A model generated the notes under the pieces. The model saw only the letters and a program-made list of their open reading frames with translations, was not told the origin of the DNA and did no database searches. From contig JADJSH010000010.1 of the NCBI GenBank assembly GCA_016711805.1, positions 1 through 64,000 on the forward strand: 64,000 bases of DNA. The letters are read 5' to 3'. Shown one piece after another: positions 2,822 to 64,000 of this stretch (positions are counted from its first letter, which is position 1; each line of letters begins with the position of its first letter). The DNA comes from Bacteroidota bacterium. Lineage in GTDB: Bacteria > Bacteroidota > Bacteroidia > B-17B0 > Aurantibacillaceae. The position numbers were made by a program, and so were the translations under genes.

Positions 2822-2890
2822 AGAGTTTGGTTTTTGAAACCAAATTTATAAAATGATTTGGATTAACATTAATAAATATACTGAAAAGAT

Positions 2891-3185
2891 GCGGGCGTGC
2901 CGGCGCAAAGAGGCTGGCGCCGTCGGGCTGCCGTTACAAGCTTTTTGGACTTCGGGGCTTCGATACTTCGACAAGTTCAGTAACCATCTAAGCCACCTTC
3001 AGCTACCAAAAAGGCTTTCCACTTGCATCCCTCAAGCAAATTCACTATTAAATGCGAAGTTTTACTTTCAATTTACGGGATTAACTTGCGTTAAGGATTG
3101 TAGCGAAAATCCTTTTTTATGAGGCACGAATAAAAAAGATTGAAGCGTAAAGCCTGACCCGACCAAAGGAAGGGTAACGCCCAAA
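2891..3185. repeat. intergenic repeat family A copy (MITE/REP-like, GC-rich, terminal inverted repeats GGGCGTG...ACGCCC)
   Basis: Shares modules GGGCGTGCCGGCGCAAAG...GCGCCGTCGGGCTG and CTTGCATCCCTCA with copies at 6950, 17719, 19286, 22694, 58399 and 63441. Confidence 0.6.
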
Positions 3186-6949: not shown

Positions 6950-7140
6950 GGGCGTGTCCCTGCGGGCCGGGCTGTCGGCACTCGCTTTTTATTTGTCCTG
7001 CGGAGCAAATAAAAGAGCTCAGACATATGCCGCTATCCCTCACGCAGGTTTTTATTAAGTTTGAAAGTAAAAGCTGCGCGAGGGATGAAAACAAAAAAGA
7101 TTGCAGTGACAGCGCAGTTCGGCTACCGCCGAACGCGCCC
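6950..7140. repeat. intergenic repeat family A copy
   Basis: GGGCGTGTCCCTGCGGGCCGGGCTGTCGGCACTCGC ... hairpin CCCTCACGCAGG/GCGCGAGGGATG ... CAGTGACAGCGCAGTTCGGCTACCGCCGAACGCGCCC; the mirror of the ends of the 22694-22936 copy. Confidence 0.6.
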
Positions 7141-8334: not shown

Positions 8335-8495
8335 GCAACACCCCTTGCATACGTTGGTAATAGTGCGGCTGGCTTTGGCGAAAGAGAGCGAACCGCCATT
8401 CAACGAAGCTTTTTTGCGGGGCCAATGGTGGTTGGTCTTTCGCCTTGACATTTTTGTTTCTTTTTTCGTCAAGGAAAAAAGAAAGAGTAGAAAAC
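8335..8495. repeat. intergenic repeat family C copy (5' motif CATACGTTGGTAATAGTGCGGCTG, 3' A/T-rich hairpin)
   Basis: 5' 24-mer nearly identical to the copy at 12868; ends in hairpin tttcttttttcgtcaaggaaaaaagaaa. Confidence 0.5.
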
Positions 8496-10580: not shown

Positions 10581-10603
10581 TATTTTAGTAAACTATAAGA
10601 GCG

Positions 10604-10762
10604 CTTCTCGACTACGCTCGAAGTGACATAAATACTAAACTTTAGTTACATATTGAGCTTGTCAGTTCGAGCGTAGTCAAGAACCGATGTGAAAGAGTTA
10701 GCGAACCGAAGATAAAACAAAAAAGGATTTGTCAGTTCGAGCGTAGTCGAGAACCGAAGTAA
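10604..10762. repeat. intergenic repeat family B (palindromic 24-bp arms TTCTCGACTACGCTCGAAGTGACA / TGTCAGTTCGAGCGTAGTCGAGAA): full hairpin unit plus an extra half-arm
   Basis: An ~86-bp unit 10604-10689 that is identical to 11111-11196; an additional arm at 10730-10762. Confidence 0.7.
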
Positions 10763-10774
10763 GAATAAAACTAA

Positions 10775-11110
10775 ATGATAGTTAAATATTTATACGTTTA
10801 TATCATAAAATGTAATGATGGCACTTACTATACAGGAGTTACAAATAACATTGAAAAAAGACTAGTAGAACATAATGAAGGAATACATAAAGAATCATAT
10901 ACTTATTTTCGTAGGCCTGTTGAATTAGCATTTTGTGAATTATTTTCAGATTACAACTTAGCAATTCAATGGGAGAAAAAGATAAAAAAATGGAGTGCTA
11001 AAAAGAAAGAAGCTTTAATAAATTCGGATTGGAAAAGATTAATTGAAGAAGCAAAATGTAAAAACGAAACTTCTCATGAAATATATAATACAATAAGATT
11101 AAATAAATAA
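10775..11110 (+). CDS. GIY-YIG nuclease family protein (small, stand-alone)
   Basis: YVYIIKCNDGTYYTGVTNNIEKRLVEHN matches the GIY-(x10)-YIG motif with conserved R and H/E; 111 aa. Confidence 0.85.
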   Translation: MIVKYLYVYIIKCNDGTYYTGVTNNIEKRLVEHNEGIHKESYTYFRRPVELAFCELFSDYNLAIQWEKKIKKWSAKKKEALINSDWKRLIEEAKCKNETSHEIYNTIRLNK

Positions 11111-11196
11111 CTTCTCGACTACGCTCGAAGTGACATAAATACTAAACTTTAGTTACATATTGAGCTTGTCAGTTCGAGCGTAGTCGAGAACCGAAG
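11111..11196. repeat. intergenic repeat family B, full hairpin unit (direct repeat of 10604-10689)
   Basis: Identical 86-bp sequence cttctcgactacgctcgaagtgacataaatactaaactttagttacatattgagcttgtcagttcgagcgtagtcgagaaccgaag. Confidence 0.7.
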
Positions 11197-11207
11197 AAAA
11201 ATAAAAA

Positions 11208-11729
11208 ATGAATCACGAAATAATAATAGAAACCGAACGTTTAATAATAAGGGAACATGTCTTAAGTGACGCTCCGTTTTTCTTTACACTAAATTCAAAT
11301 TACAATGTTGTAAAATATACTGGAGACTCATCATTTAAAACGATTGAAGAAGCAGAAAAAATAGTTCAGTACGTCATGAACCAATATAAAGAAAATGGAT
11401 ACGGACGGTGGTTAGTGGCAGAGAAGGAAACTGGAAATCCCATAGGCTGGTGCGGTTTAAAATTCCATACAGATACAAAAGAAACTGACATAGGTTACCG
11501 ACTATTAGAAAGTGCTTGGGGAAAAGGTTACGCTACTGAATCGGCTAAAGCATGTATAGATTATGGATTCAATCATTTTAATTTAAATCGAATTATTGGT
11601 GACGCCATGAAGGAAAATACAGCATCTATTAATATATTCAAAAAATTGGGAATGACCTATTTAAAAGACAGTTTGCTTGATAATATAGAATCTGTTGTTT
11701 ACGAACTAAAAAAAGAAAATTACAAATAA
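11208..11729 (+). CDS. GNAT family N-acetyltransferase (RimJ/RimL-like)
   Basis: Acetyl-CoA binding region GWCGLKF...IGYRLLESAWGKGYATE; 173 aa. Confidence 0.8.
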   Translation: MNHEIIIETERLIIREHVLSDAPFFFTLNSNYNVVKYTGDSSFKTIEEAEKIVQYVMNQYKENGYGRWLVAEKETGNPIGWCGLKFHTDTKETDIGYRLLESAWGKGYATESAKACIDYGFNHFNLNRIIGDAMKENTASINIFKKLGMTYLKDSLLDNIESVVYELKKENYK

Positions 11730-11730
11730 G

Positions 11731-12858
11731 ATGCGCTTAACACAACGCCTTCAATTAATCAAATTAACCGTTCTTATTGGCTTGTTAGCGTCCATTATTT
11801 TAAGCCATCCTTTATGGGCAGGAGACAGATGGTTTCCAAAAACAACATTGATAGAAGATTATTTTGGAGTGCCCTACCCTTACGATTACATTCAATTTGC
11901 GGTTTTAATTTTACTCATCATATTTTCTTTTAGTACGCAAAAAAAGTTTCCAACTGTATTATTAATTTTATTTTCGGTGTATATGTGTTTTGATGATCAA
12001 AACCGTTTACAGCCATGGTTTTATAATTACATTTTAATCTTATTTATCTTATTATTTTATAGGCATCGTGTAGATGAACCTAACAATTACACCACGGTCT
12101 TTATTTCGCTGCAGTTGCTGGTGGCCTTGATTTACATCTTTAGTGGGATTCAAAAAATGAATTCTTCTTTTGTACCAGATACCTTTGAATGGATGATTAG
12201 TGCTTTTGATACGGTATTATCAAAACGACAGCTTGGCATCGTAACTAAATTTGGTTATGTAATTCCCTACTTCGAATTAAGTATTGGTGTATTATTACTC
12301 GTAAAGCAGTTTCGCTTTATTGTTGTTCCATTAGTAATCCTAATGCATATTTTAATTTTAATCATGTTAGGTCCAACTGGTAAATCCTATAACTCCGTAG
12401 TTTGGCCTTGGAATATCATCATGATAGCATTAATACTGCTGCTATTTGCTGACGTTAAACAAGAACGCTTTTTTGATATTTCCTTTTTATTTAAAGGATT
12501 GAGTTTTTATATCGTGATTACCTTAATGCTCATCTTCCCTATTTTTAGTTTAAATAACCAATACGATTCGTATTTATCAAGTTCATTATATTCATCAAAC
12601 TTAAATGAATGTCAGTTAATTTTAACGGACAAAGCCTATAATCGATTACCTAATGATCTTAAAGCATTTTGCACTACCAATGTTGATCACAATGTATTAT
12701 ATATTAAAAAATGGGTAGAAGAAGAACTAAACGTGCCATGCGTACCTGAGTACCGTATCTTTAGAAACGCTCATCATTATATTATTCAACTCACACAAAC
12801 TGATTTGAAAGAAGTTAAATTTAACTTTATTGAAAGAGAGAAATTAATTGAGTTTTAG
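11731..12858 (+). CDS. polytopic integral membrane protein of unknown function
   Basis: At least 8 hydrophobic segments; no catalytic motif recognised. Confidence 0.4.
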   Translation: MRLTQRLQLIKLTVLIGLLASIILSHPLWAGDRWFPKTTLIEDYFGVPYPYDYIQFAVLILLIIFSFSTQKKFPTVLLILFSVYMCFDDQNRLQPWFYNYILILFILLFYRHRVDEPNNYTTVFISLQLLVALIYIFSGIQKMNSSFVPDTFEWMISAFDTVLSKRQLGIVTKFGYVIPYFELSIGVLLLVKQFRFIVVPLVILMHILILIMLGPTGKSYNSVVWPWNIIMIALILLLFADVKQERFFDISFLFKGLSFYIVITLMLIFPIFSLNNQYDSYLSSSLYSSNLNECQLILTDKAYNRLPNDLKAFCTTNVDHNVLYIKKWVEEELNVPCVPEYRIFRNAHHYIIQLTQTDLKEVKFNFIEREKLIEF

Positions 12859-12867
12859 CAAATTTAT

Positions 12868-13065
12868 CATACGTTGGTAATGGTGCGGCTGATTTTGGCA
12901 ATTCGGTGCGAACTACAATTTTTTCGGTGGAATTGCGCTGACTTTTCGAGCGAGAAAAAGATTGGAGTTGGCGTTTCGTCTTGTCCTACGCACCTGCTCG
13001 CTCAATTGTGTGCTACACAATTGCCGTATTTCTTTTTGTTCAAGCAAAAAGAAAAAGAAAAGTAA
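12868..13065. repeat. intergenic repeat family C copy
   Basis: Starts CATACGTTGGTAATGGTGCGGCTG; contains AAAAGATTGGAGTTGGCG and the terminal hairpin tttctttttgttcaagcaaaaagaaaaagaaa. Confidence 0.5.
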
Positions 13066-13098
13066 AATTTTGGTACATTTACTTTACAATTTATTTAC

Positions 13099-15470: not shown

Positions 15471-15488
15471 TATTATTTTTTTAGGTTT

Positions 15489-15564
15489 TGTCAGTTCGAG
15501 CGTAGTCGAGAACTAGACAAATTAAATTTTATTAGGACACATCTCGACTACGCTCGATGTGACA
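15489..15564. repeat. intergenic repeat family B hairpin unit
   Basis: TGTCAGTTCGAGCGTAGTCGAGAAC ... ATCTCGACTACGCTCGATGTGACA inverted arms. Confidence 0.65.
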
Positions 15565-15616
15565 TACTGTGTGTATATCCGCAAAAATTTACGTCATATG
15601 CGGGCAAAATTAATTC

Positions 15617-16849
15617 CTACTTTTTCTTCTTTTTTTTGCCTTTATATGCTTTATCTTCTTTCTCGGCATCAGCAATTAATTTCTTCCAATTATCATTCAC
15701 ATCTTCCGTTAAAGCCAATGTTTCGCTATAATCGGCTTTATCAACTGATAACACCGTTACTTTTTTATCCATGAAGCTTTCAATCTCATCTAAAACTGGC
15801 TTTTCCTCGGGGCTGCAAAACGATACTGCCACGCCTTTGTTATTTCCTCGTCCTGTTCGCCCTACTCTATGCACATAATTCTCGGCTACATCAGGTAAAT
15901 CATAATTCACCACATAATCCACATTAGCAATATCAACGCCTCGCGCACTAATATCTGTAGCAATTAATAATTTAAAGTCGCCGTTCTTAAAACCGTTCAT
16001 TACTTCCAAACGATTTTCTTGATCTTTACCACCGTGCATGGTTTGGCTTTTAATACCAACTCTGTTCATGGCTTCATATACACGCTCAGCACGCACTTTT
16101 GTTCTTACAAATACCAATATTCTACTTTCAGGATTTTCATTCACGATACGTTCCAAAAAGAAACGTTTGTCATCCATGCTCACAAACATGACTGAGTGAG
16201 TCACATTTTTTGAAACAGGATCTTTAGGAGAAATTTGAATCCGAATCGCATTACGTACAATTGAATACGCTAGTTTCTTAATCTTTTCATTAATAGTTGC
16301 AGAGAAAAATAAGGTTTGACGGTGACGTGGCAAATATTTAATTAAGTCTTCAATATCTTTATAAAAGCCTAAATCCAACATTAAATCGGCCTCATCCAAC
16401 ACTAATACTTTAATTTCTCTTAATTTTAAATAACCTTGATTTACTAAATCAAACACACGACCAGGTGTGGCAATCACAATATCAACGCCTTGATGTAATT
16501 TTTCAATTTGCGGATCTTGATCTACTCCACCATAAATACCAAGTGTTGTAACGCTTGTATATTTAGCTAGTTTATCAAACACTTCCGTAATTTGTATCGC
16601 TAACTCGTGAGTTGGAACCATCACGATAGCTTGCACACCTTGACCTACTCCTGCTTTTTCAATTAAATGAATAATAGGAATAGCAAAAGCTGCTGTTTTC
16701 CCAGTTCCCGTTTGCGCAATAGCCAAAACATCTTCGCCATTTAAAATGTTAGGGATAGCTTTAAACTGAATATCAGTTGGACGCTTAAATCCTAATTCAT
16801 TTAAACTCTGTTTAAGTTCGGGTATAATATGGTATTCTTCAAACTTCAT
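15617..16849 (-). CDS. DEAD-box ATP-dependent RNA helicase
   Basis: Q motif, Walker A AQTGTGKT, DEAD box VLDEAD, SAT, HRVGRTGR; Lys-rich tail. Confidence 0.9.
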   Translation of the reverse strand: MKFEEYHIIPELKQSLNELGFKRPTDIQFKAIPNILNGEDVLAIAQTGTGKTAAFAIPIIHLIEKAGVGQGVQAIVMVPTHELAIQITEVFDKLAKYTSVTTLGIYGGVDQDPQIEKLHQGVDIVIATPGRVFDLVNQGYLKLREIKVLVLDEADLMLDLGFYKDIEDLIKYLPRHRQTLFFSATINEKIKKLAYSIVRNAIRIQISPKDPVSKNVTHSVMFVSMDDKRFFLERIVNENPESRILVFVRTKVRAERVYEAMNRVGIKSQTMHGGKDQENRLEVMNGFKNGDFKLLIATDISARGVDIANVDYVVNYDLPDVAENYVHRVGRTGRGNNKGVAVSFCSPEEKPVLDEIESFMDKKVTVLSVDKADYSETLALTEDVNDNWKKLIADAEKEDKAYKGKKKKKK

Positions 16850-17426: not shown

Positions 17427-17690
17427 CTACACAATTCTTTCTAAATAAAACAATAACAAATCGTATTGCGACTGATATTCACGTGCGTAACCTGAAGTGC
17501 TATATTCTTTAGGATTTTCGTAGCAAAGCCTTTCGAAATTCGTTAATAAATGATTGAAGTTATCAGCATTCATGTGCTTTAAAAACGCCTCTCTGTTCCC
17601 TTCTAATAATTTATAAATATCTAAAGCAGATTTATGAATAGAGGTGTTTTTATAGTTTTTGATTTCGAGAATCACATCATTTATAAGCAT
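17427..17690 (-). CDS. hypothetical small protein
   Basis: 87-aa ORF convergent with the previous gene; no motif. Confidence 0.3.
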   Translation of the reverse strand: MLINDVILEIKNYKNTSIHKSALDIYKLLEGNREAFLKHMNADNFNHLLTNFERLCYENPKEYSTSGYAREYQSQYDLLLFYLERIV

Positions 17691-17718
17691 GTTGTAAAGT
17701 TAATCTTTTTTATTAGTT

Positions 17719-17852
17719 GGGCGTATCGGCGCAAAAGAGGCAGCGCCGTCGGGCTGACCCGCTTCAATCTTTTTGTTGCTCCTACGCTGCAGCTTCGGCG
17801 CAAGCGTAAAGGAACACAAAAAGGATTTTCGCTCGCATCCCTTACGCAGGTA
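17719..17852. repeat. intergenic repeat family A copy (left half only)
   Basis: GGGCGTATCGGCGCAAAAGAGGCAGCGCCGTCGGGCTGACCCGCT...CGCTCGCATCCCTTACGCAGG. Confidence 0.6.
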
Positions 17853-17893
17853 ATGCAAAAAAAATATTACATTTAAATTCTAAAACTAAAAAC

Positions 17894-19191: not shown

Positions 19192-19285
19192 TTTTACTTT
19201 CTGATTCCTTTATTTTTAATTTATATAGATGTGTCTGCAAGCTAGACCAATTCAGGTATAAAACATGCCTCTATTTTGATGTAAG

Positions 19286-19395
19286 CATGCTTGAGGGATG
19301 CAAGTGAAAATCCTTTTGTGAGGCACGAACAAAAGATTGCAGCGACAGCCCGACGGCGCTTGTTATTTGCGCCGGCAAGCCCAACAATTTAAAAC
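19286..19395. repeat. intergenic repeat family A copy (partial, opposite orientation)
   Basis: Reverse complement matches GGGCTTGCCGGCGCAAATAACAAGCGCCGTCGGGCTGTCGCTGCAATCTTTTG...GGATTTTCACTTGCATCCCTCAAGC. Confidence 0.6.
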
Positions 19396-22693: not shown

Positions 22694-22936
22694 GGGCTTG
22701 CCGGCGCAAAGAACAAGCGCCGTCGGGCTGTCGCTACAATCTTTGCAAAAGGCAGGCAAAGGATTTACGCTTGCATCCCTCACGCGAGTCTCATATTCAA
22801 ATTCGAAATATAGACTTCGATTATTGAAAAGCTAACTCGCGTGAGGGATTGAGGCGTTTGTTTGAGCTCTTTTTATTTATCCATCGGATAAATAAAAAAG
22901 CGAGTGCCGAAAGCCCGACCCGCAGGGACACGCCCA
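22694..22936. repeat. intergenic repeat family A, full-length copy
   Basis: GGGCTTGCCGGCGCAAAGAACAAGCGCCGTCGGGCTG ... long hairpin CGCTTGCATCCCTCACGCGAGT(loop)ACTCGCGTGAGGGAT ... GCGAGTGCCGAAAGCCCGACCCGCAGGGACACGCCC. Confidence 0.7.
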
Positions 22937-38006: not shown

Positions 38007-38113
38007 ATAGAATTAATAAAATCAAAAAAAATAGTATTAACTTGTAACTAATTAAAATACAATTAAATATACAGATAATGTAAAAATGACTATTGCCATG
38101 TAAAAAAACAGTA

Positions 38114-38121
38114 TAAATTTG
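38114..38121 (+). promoter_or_regulatory. -7 promoter element TAnnTTTG for the small-lipoprotein operon
   Basis: TAAATTTG ~26 bp upstream of the ATG at 38147. Confidence 0.35.
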
Positions 38122-38146
38122 TACTAAACTAGAATAATTAAAACAA

Positions 38147-38347
38147 ATGAAAAAAATTACTTTACTTACAGCTGTTATTATATCGGCATCTTTAGCGTCA
38201 TGCAAAAAAAACTGGGTTTGTCAATGCTCTGACTCTAACGGCGAATTAGCGTTTGAAGCTCGTTCTCAAAAAATGAAAAAAAACGATGCAAAAACATGGT
38301 GCACCAAAGGGAATGATGAATCAGACTATACCTGTGAACTTAAATAA
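38147..38347 (+). CDS. small 4-Cys lipoprotein, paralog 1
   Basis: Lipobox LASC; mature part CKKNWVCQC...KKNDAKTWC...YTCELK. Stop overlaps the next start (TAATG). Confidence 0.6.
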   Translation: MKKITLLTAVIISASLASCKKNWVCQCSDSNGELAFEARSQKMKKNDAKTWCTKGNDESDYTCELK

Positions 38348-38538
38348 TGAAAAAATCAATCTTCGTTTTGGTTGTTGCTATTTTTAGCTTAACATCTTGT
38401 AAAAAAGATAGAGTTTGCTCTTGTTCTTATCAAGATGGGACAGTTGTTTCGGAAAATACTTACAAAAATGTAACTCGAAAAGAAGCAAAAACTTATTGTG
38501 TAAGTGCAAACCAAAGTGTGTCTTGTTCTATAAAATAA
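38347..38538 (+). CDS. small 4-Cys lipoprotein, paralog 2
   Basis: Lipobox LTSC; CKKDRVCSC...RKEAKTYC...VSCSIK. Confidence 0.6.
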   Translation: MKKSIFVLVVAIFSLTSCKKDRVCSCSYQDGTVVSENTYKNVTRKEAKTYCVSANQSVSCSIK

Positions 38539-38691
38539 ACGTTCTTCTTGTTATAATTACTTTCAATCATGGGATAAATAAGCATAGTTTTCTTATTTAG
38601 AACAACTATAAATATCAAAATACCCAGTATTGGGTATACAGATATTGAAAAAAAGTATTTAAATTTGCCTAAACTTTAAAAAAACAAAAAA

Positions 38692-38925
38692 ATGAAAAAA
38701 ATTACTTTGTTAGCAGCTGTTGTTATCGCAGCTTCTTTTGCTTCTTGCAAAAAAGACTACACTTGTGTTTGTACTGTACCTGCTAGCAGCTCTTCTTACT
38801 ATGCTGGAACTTCTTACACTTACGATTTAGGTAAAATCAAAAAGAAAGATGCAAAAGCTTCTTGTGATGCAGCTGGTGCAACTTGGATTAATTTAGGTGG
38901 TACTTGCGAAGAAAAAGTTAAATAA
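38692..38925 (+). CDS. small 4-Cys lipoprotein, paralog 3
   Basis: Lipobox FASC; CKKDYTCVC...KKDAKASC...GTCEEKVK; own TAAATTTG -7 element at 38660-38667 and terminator downstream. Confidence 0.6.
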   Translation: MKKITLLAAVVIAASFASCKKDYTCVCTVPASSSSYYAGTSYTYDLGKIKKKDAKASCDAAGATWINLGGTCEEKVK

Positions 38926-38943
38926 TTTTTAACTCTTTAAAAA

Positions 38944-38978
38944 AAAGGTCATTATCTCAGATAATGACCTTTTTTTTT
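38944..38978 (+). terminator. rho-independent terminator
   Basis: aaaaggtcattatctcagataatgaccttttttttt. Confidence 0.65.
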
Positions 38979-39089
38979 GCTTTTTATGACTTTTATCAAG
39001 AAAATATTTTTAATAATTACCCTCCAGTGGGTATCAAATATGTAAAAAGTTTGTATACATTTGTACTATAAACTTTAAAAACTAAAAAA

Positions 39090-39389
39090 ATGAAAAAAAT
39101 CACTTTATTAGCAGTTGCTTTTGTAGCATTAACTGCAGTTTCTTGCAAAAAAGACAGAACTTGTACTTGCAAAACTACAACAAGTAGTGTAAGCGTTAGC
39201 AACACTTCTGGTTCTACTTCGTACAACGGTCCATTTGCTTCTGATGAAGATAAAATGACTATGACTAAAGTTTCTAAAAAAGCTGCAGCAGCAAACTGTG
39301 TTTCTGGTGACAATGTTAATACTAACGTTTCTTCATCTGGTAACACTACTACAACTACTACAACTAAAAAAGATTGTTCTTTAAGCTAG
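39090..39389 (+). CDS. small 4-Cys lipoprotein, paralog 4 (Thr/Ser-rich)
   Basis: Lipobox AVSC; CKKDRTCTC...KKAAAANC...KKDCSLS; TACATTTG -7 element at 39055-39062; terminator gaaagctaccaaattggtagctttttttt at 39398-39430. Confidence 0.6.
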   Translation: MKKITLLAVAFVALTAVSCKKDRTCTCKTTTSSVSVSNTSGSTSYNGPFASDEDKMTMTKVSKKAAAANCVSGDNVNTNVSSSGNTTTTTTTKKDCSLS

Positions 39390-48611: not shown

Positions 48612-51017
48612 CTATTTCTTAAACTCTACTTTCATTTCTACACGACGGTTTTTCTGACGTCCTTCTGGTGTATTATTATCAGCAATTGGCACTGCTTGTC
48701 CAAACCACTCAGCAATTACTTTATCAGCTTTTACGCCTTTGCTTACTAAGTATTTTTTAACTGCCTTCGCACGTTTTTCAGAAAGCATCAAGTTCTTAGT
48801 TGGGTCACCTTGGTTATCTGTATGTCCAGATAACTTCAAGGTCCAATCAGCAGCATGCTCTTTCATTAATTTTGCTAAGTCGTTTAACGATGGTAATGAA
48901 ACTGGCTTAATAATATCTTTACCAGTTGCAAACTCTAAACTAGAGAAAGCACGTTCAAGAATTTTTTGCTCTTCTACTTTTAATACTGGAGCTGGAGGAC
49001 ATCCTTTTAACTCTTTTAAACCTGGAGTTGTAGGGCAATCATCTTCTCTATCCACTACTCCATCTTTATCTGTATCAATCCAAGGGCAACCTTTATTTTC
49101 AACTGCACCAACAACATCTGGGCAATTATCATCTTTATCTAACACGGTATCTCCATCTCTATCAGGGCAACCTTTAAATTCTTTAGGTCCTGCAACATCA
49201 GGGCAAGAATCGTACTTATCTGGTGTTTTATCGCCATCTCTATCAGGGCAGCCTAAAAACTCCGCTAAACCTGCGTCATCCGGACACTCATCTTCTTTAT
49301 CTGTAATTTTATCTCCATCTTTATCAGGACAGCCTTTAAAATCAACCAATCCTTTATCATCTGGGCAATTATCTTCTAAATCAGTAATGCCATCTCCATC
49401 TCTATCAGGACAACCTTGTAATTCTTTAGTACCTGCAACATCTGGGCATTTATCTTCGCTATCCTGAATATGATCTCCATCTTTATCAGGACAACCCATA
49501 AACTCCCAAGTTCCCGGTATGTCTTTACACTTATCTTTTTTATTGGAAACTTCATCCTTATCTCTATCTTTTGGTTTGCCATAAGGAATAGGCAATTTCA
49601 ACATGGCATAAATATCCGCGCCGTAAATTGTTTTTTGTCCTACTAACGGTGCTAAGTTGGATGAACCAACTACTATTGGCCCTAACCTAACTGCAGCTCC
49701 TGCTCTAAAGCCATCCAAAAAATTATATTGAATTGGAATAAATATACCAGCCCACTTCCAATCGTAACGAGGTGTTAAAGTAATGCTACTAATATCATGT
49801 ACTTTCGTGTCATTATTTTTAAACTGCATGGCAATAAAAGGCGTTAAGTTTACATAGAAATCTTTCCAAACTTGATAATCAATTTGAGCACTGATGGCAG
49901 TTGGTAAATTCATTTTGTAAAACGATTTTGATCCTGTTTGAGTAAATCGACCTTTTAATGTATCATCAAACTCACCGACAGATTGTGGATCAATTGGCTT
50001 TAGATTCCAATAACCAACATTTGCTTGAAAATCTCCACTAGTGCTTCCTTTTTTAAATTTGATAGATCCTAAATCAGTAACCGAAAATCCAACTTTTAAT
50101 TTGTATTTATTTTTGTCTTTACGCCATAAATCTTTCTCACCATCCATATTGTATTTATATTTTAAATACGAAGGACGCCATTCATACACAACACCAAAAT
50201 CAAAACCAACACCAGGATAAGATTGACTATAATCAAACACCTTAGTTCCAGTGTTACTTTCGCCGACTTTTAAATCCTTAAAGGTTAAATTATCAGAGTG
50301 ACCGTAATTTACCTCTGATTGAAAAATAGATAAAGTGGTATCTGTTTGAAAATTATATTCTAAATCTTTTACAAACATATAAGCCGATTGAATACCTTGT
50401 AATAATTTTACAGTTACTCCACCTTTAAAATAATGTTCGTTATCTTCTTTAAATACATGAGCATAAGTTAAACCATATTCTGCCCAGGTCATTTCTTGAA
50501 TACTTAGATTTTTATTTTGAAGATTAGTAACCCATAAAGATGGATACTTAAATTCCTCGTAAGCTAGCTTTGCTAAATCAGGAGAGATTCCGTCGATATT
50601 GATATAATTTCTAATACTAGAGGAAATAGCAATAGCATTTTTTCTGTTTATTGGAATCATAAATGATGGTCCAGCAATACGGTTAGTTAAATAAATGCTT
50701 TTATTTCTTCCATTAATACGTTCGGTTAAATATTTGTCAGCAAATAATGTATCGTCAAAAGCAGGCAAAGTTGTTTTACCATCTGCATCTTTGGCTCTTT
50801 TAAAGGCCGAACGATCTATTCCAATATAGTTGTTATAAAAACCAATATTTAAACCAACTAAATTCATATCAAATTTCATACGACCATCTACAATACTAGC
50901 TGGCTGTTGATAGATTCCAGTTACGCCGGCATAATTACTTTGATTAAATCCCACAAAATCTTGAGATTGAGCAAAATAACTAAAAGATAAAGCGGCAAAA
51001 AGTAATAATTTCTTCAT
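48612..51017 (-). CDS. OmpA-family outer-membrane protein with thrombospondin type-3 (calcium-binding) repeats
   Basis: Signal peptide, N-terminal beta-barrel-like region, ~10 tandem DKDGD...CPD TSP3 repeats, C-terminal OmpA domain (...SGHTDNQGDPTKNLMLSEKRAKAV...NRRVE). Confidence 0.85.
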   Translation of the reverse strand: MKKLLLFAALSFSYFAQSQDFVGFNQSNYAGVTGIYQQPASIVDGRMKFDMNLVGLNIGFYNNYIGIDRSAFKRAKDADGKTTLPAFDDTLFADKYLTERINGRNKSIYLTNRIAGPSFMIPINRKNAIAISSSIRNYINIDGISPDLAKLAYEEFKYPSLWVTNLQNKNLSIQEMTWAEYGLTYAHVFKEDNEHYFKGGVTVKLLQGIQSAYMFVKDLEYNFQTDTTLSIFQSEVNYGHSDNLTFKDLKVGESNTGTKVFDYSQSYPGVGFDFGVVYEWRPSYLKYKYNMDGEKDLWRKDKNKYKLKVGFSVTDLGSIKFKKGSTSGDFQANVGYWNLKPIDPQSVGEFDDTLKGRFTQTGSKSFYKMNLPTAISAQIDYQVWKDFYVNLTPFIAMQFKNNDTKVHDISSITLTPRYDWKWAGIFIPIQYNFLDGFRAGAAVRLGPIVVGSSNLAPLVGQKTIYGADIYAMLKLPIPYGKPKDRDKDEVSNKKDKCKDIPGTWEFMGCPDKDGDHIQDSEDKCPDVAGTKELQGCPDRDGDGITDLEDNCPDDKGLVDFKGCPDKDGDKITDKEDECPDDAGLAEFLGCPDRDGDKTPDKYDSCPDVAGPKEFKGCPDRDGDTVLDKDDNCPDVVGAVENKGCPWIDTDKDGVVDREDDCPTTPGLKELKGCPPAPVLKVEEQKILERAFSSLEFATGKDIIKPVSLPSLNDLAKLMKEHAADWTLKLSGHTDNQGDPTKNLMLSEKRAKAVKKYLVSKGVKADKVIAEWFGQAVPIADNNTPEGRQKNRRVEMKVEFKK
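48950..49560. repeat. in-frame tandem repeats encoding thrombospondin type-3 motifs inside the OmpA-family gene
   Basis: Recurring ~69-75-bp units (gggcaa/cctttaaa.tc...ccatctctatcaggaca). Confidence 0.6.
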
Positions 51018-53124: not shown

Positions 53125-53197
53125 CTCTTCGAGCTTAGTCGTGAAGTGTTCTTAATGAGGCCTTTATTGTTCTCGACTACGCTAGCACTGACAAGCC
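53125..53197. repeat. intergenic repeat family B copy (degenerate)
   Basis: CTCTTCGAGCTTAGTCGTGAAGTG ... TTCTCGACTACGCTAGCACTGACAAGCC. Confidence 0.55.
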
Positions 53198-56859: not shown

Positions 56860-56895
56860 CCGCTGGTTAGTGGATGGCTTTATTGTTTTATTCTA

Positions 56896-56922
56896 GCTTG
56901 TCTTCGACTACGCTCAGACAGC
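56896..56922. repeat. intergenic repeat family B, single degenerate arm
   Basis: CTTGTCTTCGACTACGCTCAGACAGCG. Confidence 0.4.
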
Positions 56923-56927
56923 GAAAA

Positions 56928-58398: not shown

Positions 58399-58636
58399 GG
58401 GCGTGCCGGCACAAAAAAGACAGTGCCGTCGGGCTTACCCGCTGCAATCTTTTTGTAAAGGAACACAAAATGGATTTCCGCTTGCATCCCTCACGTAAAT
58501 TTAAAGTAAATACGAAGTTTAAACCCCAAATTTGAAATTACATCTGCGCGAGGGATGCAAACGAAAATCCTTTTAGGAACGAAGTGAGTAAAAGATTGTA
58601 GTGACAGCCCAGTTTGGCTACCGCCAAACGCGCCCT
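58399..58636. repeat. intergenic repeat family A, full-length copy
   Basis: GGGCGTGCCGGCACAAAAAAGACAGTGCCGTCGGGCTTACCCGCTGCAATCTTT ... hairpin CGCTTGCATCCCTCACG(loop)CGCGAGGGATGCAAACG ... GTGACAGCCCAGTTTGGCTACCGCCAAACGCGCCC. Confidence 0.7.
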
Positions 58637-58651
58637 AATTTTCAAAAAAAA

Positions 58652-62030: not shown

Positions 62031-63424
62031 GTGGACAAGCATTTAACTCATCCTATATTTAAAACCATTGCCGATTGCGCTAATCAGTTGGGTGTTGACG
62101 CCTATGTGATTGGTGGTTTTGTGCGTGATATTTATTTAGGAAGAGATAGTAAAGACATTGATGTAGTTACTATTGGTAAAGGCATTGAATTAGCTGAATT
62201 AGTTCACAAACAATTAGGAGAAGAAGCACACCTTTCTGTGTTTAAAAATTTTGGTACAGCGCAAGTTAAAATCAATGATTTAGAAATTGAATTTGTAGGT
62301 GCTCGAAAAGAATCTTATAACCGCGATTCTCGCAAACCTATTGTTGAAGACGGTACTTTAGAGAACGATCAAGATAGAAGAGATTTTACCATTAATGCTT
62401 TGGCAATTGGGTTAAGTAAATCTAATTTCGGGAAATTATTAGACCCATTTAATGGTGTTGGAGATATTGAAAACAAAATACTTCGTACTCCTTTAGAACC
62501 TGAAGTTACATACAGTGACGATCCATTACGCATGATGCGCGCCATTCGTTTTTCATCACAGTTAGGATTCACAATTGAAAAAGAATCGTTAGATGCCATT
62601 TCAAAAAATAAAGCTCGCATAAGTATTGTTTCTAAAGAACGCATTACGGATGAATTAAATAAAATCATCCTCTCTCCTATTCCATCTGTTGGGTTTAAAT
62701 TATTATTTGATACAGGTTTATTGCATTTAATTTTTCCTGAAATGGTCAAATTATATGGAGTAGAAACCATTAATGGCAAATCGCATAAAGATAATTTTTA
62801 CCATACCTTAGAAGTATTAGATAACACCGCAAAAAAGAGTAATAACTTATGGTTGCGTTGGGCTGCTATTTTACATGATATTGCAAAACCTGCCACCAAA
62901 CGTTTTGAACCTGAGCATGGCTGGACTTTCCACGGCCATGAAGATAAAGGTGCTCGAATGGTACCGAAAATATTTGAAAACCTACGCTTACCTTTAAACG
63001 AAAAAATGAAGTACGTGCAAAAGTTAGTACTCCTTCATTTACGTCCCATTGTATTAGCCAAAACAGAAATATCTGATAGCGCCGTGCGCCGTGTTTTATT
63101 TGAAGCTGGCGATGATGTTGATGATTTAATGGCTTTATGCGAAGCAGATATCACTACAAAAAATCCAAATAAAGTAAAACGCTATTTACAGAACTTCGAG
63201 TTAGTTCGTGAGAAACTAAAAGAACTTGAAGAGAAAGATAAAATTCGTAATTGGCAACCACCAGTGAGTGGTGAAGAGATTATGGAGATATTTAATTTAA
63301 CGCCTTGCAAAAAAGTAGGTGATTTAAAAATGCTTTAAAAGATGCAATTTTAGATGGTATAATACCTAATGAGCGCGAAGCTGCTTTGTTATTTTTGAAA
63401 GATAAATCGCAGGAGTTAATTTAA
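62031..63424 (+). CDS. CCA tRNA nucleotidyltransferase / poly(A) polymerase family protein with HD domain, C-terminus displaced by a 1-nt deletion in an A-run (probable assembly error)
   Basis: Polymerase-beta head motif GGFVRD...DIDV, HD domain. The ORF stops at 63338, but adding one A to the A5 run at 63326-63330 continues as ...GDLKNALKDAILDGIIPNEREAALLFLKDKSQELI-stop (63424), the conserved C-terminus of this family. Confidence 0.8.
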
Positions 63425-63440
63425 TTTTATGATTGATAAT

Positions 63441-63650
63441 GCGGACCTCCTTTTTACCCTGCGTACAAAAAAAGTAAACAATGCCTCAATCCCTCACGCA
63501 AATTTTACTTTTAAATTGAAACTTATGCTTCGATCTTACAAAGAGCCAGCGTTAGGGATTGTAGTGAAAATCCTATTACGGAACAAAGTGAAGTAAAAGA
63601 TTGCAACGAAAAGCCCGACCATCCAGCTGGCGGGAACGCCCAAATCATAA
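63441..63650. repeat. intergenic repeat family A copy (diverged)
   Basis: hairpin CAATCCCTCACGC(loop)GCGTTAGGGATTG; right end AAAAGATTGCAACGAAAAGCCCGACC...GGGAACGCCC. Confidence 0.55.
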
Positions 63651-64000
63651 AGACAAAGTATGCTTAGTGTCTGGTAACACATTACTCATGTTCCACTCTA
63701 ATCGTTTTATAAAATCATTTGTTCTCACTTTGCAATCTTTCATTTCGCAAATGGAGCAAGACTTAGGTAAACAAGGATCGGCATGAATAAAAAATTCGAT
63801 TTCATGGCTAAATTCGGTAGTAGCTAATTTATCTAAATCATCTACTTCTTTATGTGATTCTTCTAAAGTATAATACCAAGGCAAAGTCATGTGGCAATCT
63901 ACATGAACAACTGAACCATATTTTACAACACGAAGATTATGAATATCAATCCAACTTGGATTGCGCTTCGTATTCAATACAGCAATTAAATGTTCAATCT
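63645..64000 (-). CDS. cation diffusion facilitator (CDF) family transporter, C-terminal cytoplasmic domain (5' end off-window)
   Basis: ...IEHLIAVLNTKRNPSWIDIHNLRVVKYGSVVHVDCHMTLP resembles the CDF C-terminal domain; the reading frame continues past the window end. Confidence 0.45.
   Translation of the reverse strand, partial: IEHLIAVLNTKRNPSWIDIHNLRVVKYGSVVHVDCHMTLPWYYTLEESHKEVDDLDKLATTEFSHEIEFFIHADPCLPKSCSICEMKDCKVRTNDFIKRLEWNMSNVLPDTKHTLSL

Follow-up and report, generated by a model that had tools for sequence, protein, structure and literature searches.

The stretch analysed here, positions 1 to 64,000 of contig JADJSH010000010.1 from the assembly GCA_016711805.1 of a Bacteroidota bacterium (hereafter, the window), contains a family of GC-rich structured intergenic repeats composed of units of about 100 nt, the core of which is the Rfam motif Flavo-1 (RF01705). 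On balance, these units are probably structured repetitive DNA resembling the repetitive extragenic palindromes (REPs) and the REP doublets forming hairpins (REPINs) known from E. coli and Pseudomonas. The basis of this reading is the anatomy of the unit, the covariation of its paired positions, the arrangement of the units, their contrast in density between lineages, their polymorphism among strains, and the absence of target-site duplications, of gene association and of orientation bias.

Repeat family of the window and its Flavo-1 core

The initial annotation of the window listed seven related intergenic loci in both orientations. A blastn search with the copy 58399-58636 gave matches at all seven of them, and a repeat finder linked the same seven loci to one another. 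A covariance model made from the window copies (R1) was then used to search the window with all filters off; exactly 11 units and no further matches were found. Together with one decayed unit, they constitute one family arranged as five inverted pairs and two solo units (Table 1). Of the seven loci, 17719-17852 and 19286-19395 are single units and not full copies, and the left arm of 63441-63650 is degenerate. All units are intergenic, i.e., located between long open reading frames (ORFs), and their GC content is 51.9% versus 33.0% in the remaining window, in agreement with the claimed excess over a background of ~33%. The motif GCKYKAGGGAT occurs nine times in the window (0.09 expected) and AAAGATTGNARYG eight times (0.14 expected). 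The mutual identity of the window units is 51-88%, with a median of 60%. Three ORFs had been considered artefacts of the elements; two of them (2853-3122 and 17634-17876) do cross units, while ORF 12874-13065 overlaps a different repeat (8348-8400 / 12868-12920).

The Rfam search that had been suggested as a check revealed the curated motif Flavo-1, which was missed in the initial annotation. Flavo-1 matches nine of the 11 window units, two of them at or above the gathering score (42 bits) and seven below it (29.9-36.8 bits, E 3.5e-4 to 0.027); two units were not detected. There is one match per half-element, on the minus strand in left halves and on the plus strand in right halves, and therefore each of the long "copies" consists of two smaller units placed in inverted orientation. 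The terminal inverted repeats GGGCGTG...CGCGCCC, earlier taken for the ends of the element, are simply the outer ends of two inverted units. The window subfamily contains GGGATGCAAGCG in place of GGGATTGNAGCG and is mostly under the Rfam threshold; judging from its sequence, it is a divergent branch of the Flavo-1 family.

A metagenome contig collection was scanned with the pattern AAAGATTGNAGCGN{2,4}AGCCCGAC and 120 loci were obtained. R1 gave 129 full-length matches in the metagenome contigs, 11 of these being the window's own units, and the view of the family as structured, modular and recurring elsewhere was thereby supported. In 20 of the 20 metagenome loci tested, Flavo-1 was found above the gathering score (21 units) at the same positions and on the same strand as the R1 units, and thus the extended unit is Flavo-1 plus flanks that are unpaired in the Rfam model.

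The unit, about 100 nt long, has the composition 5'-(T-rich)-GCGTK-A-[GGGAT...Flavo-1 hairpin...AGCCC]-GAC-[small variable hairpin]-MACGC-CC-AAA-3'. The 76-nt Flavo-1 hairpin, with the conserved internal loops GGGAUUGnAGCGgAAAUCC... / ...AAAGAUUGnAGCGnAAAGCCC, forms the long arm of every unit. The 11 window units were aligned in the Flavo-1 orientation and the alignment was folded using RNAalifold. It was found that a 5-bp closing stem pairs the inner end (GCGTG) with the outer end (CACGC), with the compensatory variants GCGCG/CGCGC, GCTTG/CAAGC, GCGTT/AACGC and GCGTA/TACGC among the window units, and that a second, small hairpin is placed between AGCCC-GAC and the closing stem. As a single strand, the unit is thus predicted to be a three-way junction; folding of single units with DNA parameters gave this structure for U4, U3 and U6R. 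The consensus is indeed structured, as had been expected, but its basic element is this self-closing structure of ~100 nt and not the long copy.

The model was evaluated on 127 distinct units. A standard pair was present in 96.7% of cells of the alignment, which was itself fitted to the model, and 19 of the 23 pairs were changed on both sides. None of 500 shuffles attained the observed pairing and covariation values, and slid controls paired in 43-53% of cells. Helices 2-4 showed pairing in 95.7-97.6% of cells, with changes on both sides, and one closing-stem pair was divided between U-A (59 units) and G-C (51 units). The small hairpin is variable (~12 to 62 nt), folds in 116 of the 127 units and most commonly has the form CCC-GNA-GGG. 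Conservation is also seen at the 3' end ...MACGC-CC-AAA (the two C at 97% and 88%, the following A at 75-82%); on the 5' side the units are flanked by T-rich sequence, and each unit contains two directly repeated GATTGNAGCGNAAAKCC motifs. A tRNA-like reading of the CCA tail was rejected, as ARAGORN made no call at the units.

Table 1. Units of the family and pair spacers in the window (R1, covariance model made from the window copies; Rfam, score of Flavo-1)
Feature	Position	Strand	R1 (bits)	Rfam (bits)	Remarks
U1L, left half of pair 1	2893-3044	-	82.1	34.8	Rfam match at 2917-3042 (-), E 0.0013; P2 hairpin CGGCGC..GCGCCG; ~50-nt insertion in the distal Flavo-1 hairpin
Pair 1 spacer	3045-3080				36 nt, AT-rich, with CGAAGTTT
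U1R, right half of pair 1	3081-3182	+	87.5	59.1	Rfam match at 3079-3163, above the gathering score
U2L, left half of pair 2	6950-7052	-	56.3		P2 is a CCC-GCA-GGG mini-hairpin; long arm divergent; homologous to 22832-22935 (U5R) as inverted repeats I1/I2 (repeat finder)
U2R, right half of pair 2	7069-7140	+	50.5		5' arm of the Flavo-1 hairpin shortened; P2 is GTTCGGC-TACC-GCCGAAC; 92% identical to 58590-58637 (repeat D16, repeat finder)
U3, solo	17719-17854	-	86.4	33.3	Between two divergent genes; three-way-junction fold with DNA parameters, z -3.6
U4, solo	19282-19382	+	91.3	36.8	Between convergent outer-membrane-protein and peptidase M3 genes
U5L, left half of pair 5	22694-22792	-	84.8	35.7	
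Pair 5 spacer	22793-22831				39 nt
U5R, right half of pair 5	22832-22935	+	64.1		
U6L, left half of pair 6	58399-58503	-	81.2	31.7	
Pair 6 spacer	58504-58538				35 nt, with CGAAGTTTAAA
U6R, right half of pair 6	58539-58635	+	84.0	29.9	
Decayed left unit of pair 7	63441-63508	-	no match		Motif match at 63489-63499; the inner end CAATCCCTCACGC is the sole recognisable part
U7R, right half of pair 7	63542-63641	+	85.0	47.7	Rfam match at 63540-63624, above the gathering score

Arrangement, gene context and variation among strains

The units formed 130 clusters, namely 114 solo units, 14 inverted pairs and two head-to-tail arrays. All 14 inverted pairs have the (-,+) orientation and the opposite one never occurs. 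The two units of a pair have their 5' ends turned towards each other, with a short AT-rich spacer between them that is 32-39 nt long in 11 of the 14 cases and 16, 143 and 281 nt in the remaining three. The spacers of unrelated loci have AAACTTCG in common, in either orientation, which indicates that the pair is copied as a whole. According to fold predictions, the whole paired element of 190-290 nt can also form one long hairpin or cruciform. For the pairs 58399-58636 and 22694-22936, the predicted structures were long hairpins of nested form, the z values ranging from -7.5 to -8.8 (58399-58636: -7.5 on one strand and -8.7 on the other). Owing to the insertion in one of its arms, the whole copy 2893-3183 did not fold significantly (z -1.6). 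The two arrays, located on metagenome contigs (L150, 4355-5031; L169, 142-721), consist of four and three Flavo-1 units, respectively, on one strand and 45-165 nt apart.

No target-site duplication was found at the borders of 92 solo units, where direct repeats of 2-6 nt at all offsets were not more frequent than in shuffled partners. Clustering of 461 neighbouring ORFs revealed no recurrent family (the largest one covers three loci), and neither a transposase nor another recurrent gene was found within 2.5 kb of ~124 non-window clusters. The genes between U3 and U4 were considered as possible cargo of an autonomous element and rejected, since they encode RidA and an outer-membrane protein. 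Carriage by phages was rejected, with only four exact pattern matches among 2.9 million viral contigs.

These data bear on the possibility, contained in the earlier label "MITE/REP-like", that the elements are classical MITEs (miniature inverted-repeat transposable elements), i.e., deletion derivatives of insertion sequences with terminal inverted repeats, moved by a target-duplicating DDE transposase. It is true that the pairs measure 190-290 nt and terminate in inverted sequences (GGGCGYG...CRCGCCC), and that their presence or absence differs among strains. However, target-site duplications are absent, the inverted ends belong to two inverted units, solo units with one such end predominate elsewhere (114 of 130 clusters), no transposase is located near any of the ~130 clusters and the copies are far from near-identical. 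Thus, a MITE nature is extremely improbable, and of the earlier label only the REP-type behaviour is retained.

The position of the units relative to genes was also analysed. Between co-directional genes, 19 units were in sense and 29 in antisense orientation, which is no orientation bias; 14 solo units were located between convergent and eight between divergent genes. A fixed place upstream of one gene family, characteristic of cis-regulatory RNAs and riboswitches, was not observed. It had been proposed that the elements act as transcription terminators or insulators; the pairs would then function in two directions between convergent genes. Four of the seven window elements are indeed located between convergent genes, their structures are very stable, and the equivalent gene end in the locus L001 has an ordinary hairpin-plus-T terminator instead. 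On the other hand, the structure is not followed by a T-run on either of the strands (T-rich sequence flanks it on the 5' side and CC-AAA on the 3' side), terminator and promoter scans at the units gave values at the background or shuffled level, units also occur between divergent gene starts (U3 and the eight divergent contexts in metagenomes), and solo units are not co-oriented with the upstream gene. All these characteristics make a terminator function very unlikely.

The density of the units in the window (11 in 64 kb, or ~172 units/Mb) is about 40-fold higher than at other Bacteroidota loci; the surroundings of the orthologous peptidase M3 gene in 80 other species of the phylum, 1.49 Mb altogether, gave only ~6 weak R1 hits (~4/Mb), and no units were detected by R1 in the three Christiangramia (formerly Gramella) loci. 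The earlier figure of hundreds of copies per genome is extrapolated from the 11 units present in these 64 kb. The nearest relative of the window among GTDB species genomes is a groundwater Bacteroidetes metagenome-assembled genome. The locus L001 (88% identity) has no common synteny with the window. In the loci L206-L208, with ~97.7% nucleotide identity, U3, U4 and pair 5 are kept. A syntenic relative with 90% protein identity (L209-L211; peptidase M3 also 90%) contains no unit in 22 kb, versus four in the window; its gap between the peptidase and outer-membrane-protein genes is 4 nt instead of 208 nt, U4 being absent from L209, although the intergenic DNA of L209 is too diverged for exact borders to be defined. 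One Logan contig, 99.98% identical and belonging to the same organism, terminates inside an element.

Among conspecific contigs, pairs 1 and 2 were present in every contig that reaches their sites (eight of eight for pair 2), whereas three sites vary between strains of ~98% identity. The pair-6 site is occupied by one or the other of two quite dissimilar pairs, depending on the strain; their small hairpins and closing stems differ (GCGTG/CACGC versus GTGTG/CACAC). Of the strains sampled, pair 7 was found in that of the window alone; it is lacking in the eight examined contigs of the same species as well as in L231, the outgroup locus. At its site, seven other strains and L231 (89%) contain an ORF of 135 aa, and the gene adjoining pair 7 is 93.5% identical to its counterparts versus ~98% elsewhere, which suggests that the pair-7 region may be an imported tract. 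At the third site, the loci L224 and L225 contain an extra pair where other strains have a different small palindrome.

Additional observations were made at these sites. The 135-aa ORF (L221, 11836-12243, corresponding to window 63403-63656) has an N-terminal hydrophobic stretch and only five homologue clusters among 5.8 billion proteins (74-98% identity), with its length kept; the small number of homologues and the constant length point to a lineage-restricted gene that was lost by the window strain. An ISL3-family transposase gene is inserted in the region of this ORF in L223 (12043-13339), in the hypervariable intergenic site where the window has pair 7. The allele of this site in L220 (11800-12190) aligns to the 135-aa ORF and also contains landmarks of the repeat family in the right order, namely GGGCGTG, AATCCCTCACGC, GTATAGGGATTGTA, AAAAGATTGC, AAGCCC and ACGCCCAAA. 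Either this allele is a true intermediate, or it is a mosaic in which the consensus merges two strains; the latter is considered because several genes of the locus are split into fragments, as in an error-prone assembly. The small palindrome of the strains lacking the extra pair (L220, 16046-16200, also L221 and L222) reads TCAACACAGAG ... CTCTGTGTTGA, is ~75 nt long and would be the fourth kind of small intergenic element in the species.

Nature of the units and comparison with known systems

Multi-copy dispersal without gene linkage or preferred orientation, the lack of target-site duplications, the oriented doublet, lineage expansion and turnover among strains allow us to assume that the units are REP/REPIN-like, rather than small RNA (sRNA) genes, terminators or classical MITEs. 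Their copying and movement would take place on DNA and be carried out by an enzyme acting in trans that recognises the folded single strand, in the way REP-associated transposases (RAYTs) act on REPs and REPINs; such an enzyme would explain both the missing target duplication and the preserved base-pairing. In the window lineage, the paired form would have spread to high density, with copies still being gained, lost and swapped between strains. Both the single-strand DNA mechanism and the dedicated enzyme are what we infer from this set of features.

Several observations weigh against this reading. A clean pair of filled and empty sites was not obtained: every polymorphic site differs beyond the element, and recombination of diverged alleles could therefore explain the differences without transposition, which is not itself demonstrated by the strain differences, as their borders are not clean. 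The low mutual identity of the window units gives no indication that copying took place very recently. A mobilising enzyme was not found near the units, and tblastn of the window and the collected loci with an E. coli RAYT query (an unverified sequence) gave no match. The REPs located beside the Bacteroidetes RAYT subclass 2.6 are hairpins of 24-35 nt that are unrelated to the units (PMC6006769, Table S1). Orthologous sites of different species still carry units, which differ by compensatory changes, e.g., in L006/L016, or in L197, where the unit orthologous to U5L has GGTGC/GCACC versus GGCGC/GCGCC. In addition, the unpaired nucleotides of the unit are strongly conserved class-wide. Orthologous retention and these conserved unpaired nucleotides are compatible with selection for some role in the host, perhaps at the RNA level. 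One base pair, with 24 U-G and no C-A, also hints weakly at strand-specific pairing.

The last points lead to the explanation that the units are functional structured RNAs, either multi-copy sRNA genes or protein-binding or RNA-stabilising modules in transcripts. Strong covariation together with conserved internal-loop sequence over class-level diversity, compensatory changes at retained sites and the conserved 3' CC-AAA tail would be expected of such RNAs, and the head-to-tail arrays of L150 and L169 resemble some multi-copy sRNA loci. Folding of the sense strand is better by ~4.5 kcal/mol than that of the antisense strand; given the homology of all units, this counts as one property of the family and not as a set of independent observations. 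Over all pairs, G-U exceeds A-C (42 versus 19), and the U-G-rich pair mentioned above alone gives 24 of the G-U; once it is set aside, the numbers are equal (18 versus 19). Orientation relative to flanking genes shows no preference, promoter and terminator signals are absent, and the 5' ends that face each other ~35 nt apart in the pairs leave no room for two promoters. A density of 172 units/Mb, with no unit in the syntenic region of a close relative and swapping between strains, is unlike a conserved RNA gene. In the published transcriptome of F. psychrophilum, Flavo-1 hits lie sense or antisense to transcribed regions and many are outside them (PMC9723704). An RNA function is therefore considered unlikely.

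Another explanation is that the units are essentially immobile structural sites of host DNA kept by selection, bound by a nucleoid, topoisomerase, replication or repair protein, as proposed for the bacterial interspersed mosaic elements (BIMEs) of E. coli. Orientation independence, the intergenic location, folding that is possible on both strands and orthologous retention agree with it, and the two direct GATTGNAGCGNAAAKCC motifs of each unit could be protein sites. Hairpins of the CC-C(GNA)G-GG type form very stable DNA mini-hairpins, and the commonest small hairpin of the units is of this type. A general chromosomal need is at variance with the 40-fold difference in density between lineages and with the absence of units from the syntenic 22 kb of the relative; moreover, one pair is replaced by a different pair between strains, and a binding protein is not known. 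This makes structural host sites distinctly unlikely.

The REP/REPIN-like reading was further compared with known systems. Flavo-1 (Weinberg et al. 2010, PMC2864571) is the same sequence family in Bacteroidota hosts. It has been present in Rfam since 2010 as an sRNA without known function (type 'Gene; sRNA'), no function being given in the original description (PMC2864571), and it is ranked in reviews among the most abundant bacterial sRNAs. The Rfam model comprises the hairpin only, whereas in the window unit this hairpin is accompanied by a closing stem that covaries, by a second hairpin of variable form and by the CC-AAA tail; it occurs here in strictly oriented inverted pairs and arrays and shows the population behaviour of repetitive DNA. 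The lack of orientation bias, the pair geometry and the published transcriptome count indirectly against the sRNA-gene type. No paper describing Flavo-1 as repetitive DNA was found in the literature searched. The Flavo-1 family is thus already known; what is new in detail is the longer unit, its occurrence in pairs and its expansion. It is proposed tentatively, as a possibility open to considerable doubt, that Flavo-1 is not an RNA gene but the core of Bacteroidota-wide repeats of the single-strand-DNA type, with a three-way-junction unit, REPIN-like pairs and its own putative enzyme unlike the known RAYT/REP pairs.

The REP/BIME/REPIN systems with RAYTs of E. coli and Pseudomonas are similar to the units in being intergenic and structured, in lacking target duplication, in occurring as solo units and as inverted doublets of fixed spacer and orientation that form a long hairpin (as observed here), and in mosaic combinations of unit subtypes, big copy-number differences between lineages and long vertical persistence. 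They differ in that REPs are single hairpins of 20-40 nt with a conserved GTAG (or CGTC) foot, while the window unit is a three-way junction of ~100 nt without a conserved foot tetranucleotide; GTAG occurs within GATTGTAGCG in some units only, at a position that varies (A, T or C). In addition, no RAYT was seen in the DNA around the units or in the tblastn search.

The CGTC-tagged REPs (Di Nocera et al. 2013, PMC3733652) also share several features with the units. They are reported from Bacteroidetes and Spirochaetes, which are also the two phyla of Flavo-1, have no associated transposase, are predominantly head-to-head dimers and carry a short CCA-like tail. The commonest small hairpin of the window units is followed by CGTC on the complementary strand (GCGC-CGTC-GGGC), but CGTC is missing from the other small-hairpin types. 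The CGTC-tagged REPs are, moreover, single hairpins with stems of 8-9 bp and loops of 4-5 nt. The larger intergenic repeats, namely ERIC/IRU, Correia (NEMIS), BOX, RUP and the Rickettsia palindromic elements, are likewise imperfect palindromes of 100-250 nt; BOX is also modular, and ERIC is conserved across genera at different genomic positions. However, none of them has a sequence relation to the units, a three-way-junction unit or strict pair orientation, and Correia and RUP have target duplications and insertion-sequence-like ends.

If Flavo-1 is part of a larger, pairing and multiplying unit, a search for a partner enzyme and tests of mobility would be preferable to a search for mRNA targets, and the window lineage, with its ~40-fold expansion and strain turnover, would be the natural place to find the enzyme. 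The elements break short-read assemblies, yield spurious ORF calls and inflate sRNA counts in Bacteroidota. The Rfam threshold misses nine of the 11 window units, and an extended model including the closing stem, the second hairpin and the tail would catch divergent subfamilies.

Other repeats and features of the window

A second palindromic family, with the core TGTCAGTTCGAGCGTAGTCGAGAAC and its complement, was found at 10594-10706, 10729-10776, 11101-11213, 15482-15620, 53169-53196 and 56887-56927. The copy 15482-15613 is missing from L206-L208, where the flanking genes are 3 nt apart; this presence/absence difference is cleaner than any obtained for the Flavo-1 units. A gene encoding a GIY-YIG nuclease of 111 aa (10775-11110) is located between two 96%-identical direct copies of the second family, and the 618-nt block with the nuclease gene and these copies (10596-11214) is wholly absent from strain L219. 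This block resembles a small mobile cassette carrying a nuclease and may be the autonomous partner of the second family.

A third repeat, which has CATACGTTGGTAATRGTGCGGCTG... followed by a T-rich/A-rich hairpin, is located at 8348-8480 and 12843-13083. The latter copy underlies ORF 12874-13065 and is replaced by 65 nt in L212 and L214. Within the 801-aa ORF 48612-51017, four to five tandem copies with a period of 81 nt (65-72% identical) were found at 49065-49506; these probably correspond to a repeated protein module of 27 residues. The region 38103-39169 contains three paralogous starts of small ORFs with ~75% identity over ~96 nt (ATGAAAAAAATTACTTT...TCTTGCAAAAAA), which resemble signal peptides of lipoproteins encoded by a small family of tandem genes. 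Finally, a transfer-messenger RNA gene is located at 357-725 on the minus strand (Rfam, 95 bits), with the tag peptide GEENSYAMAA predicted by ARAGORN.

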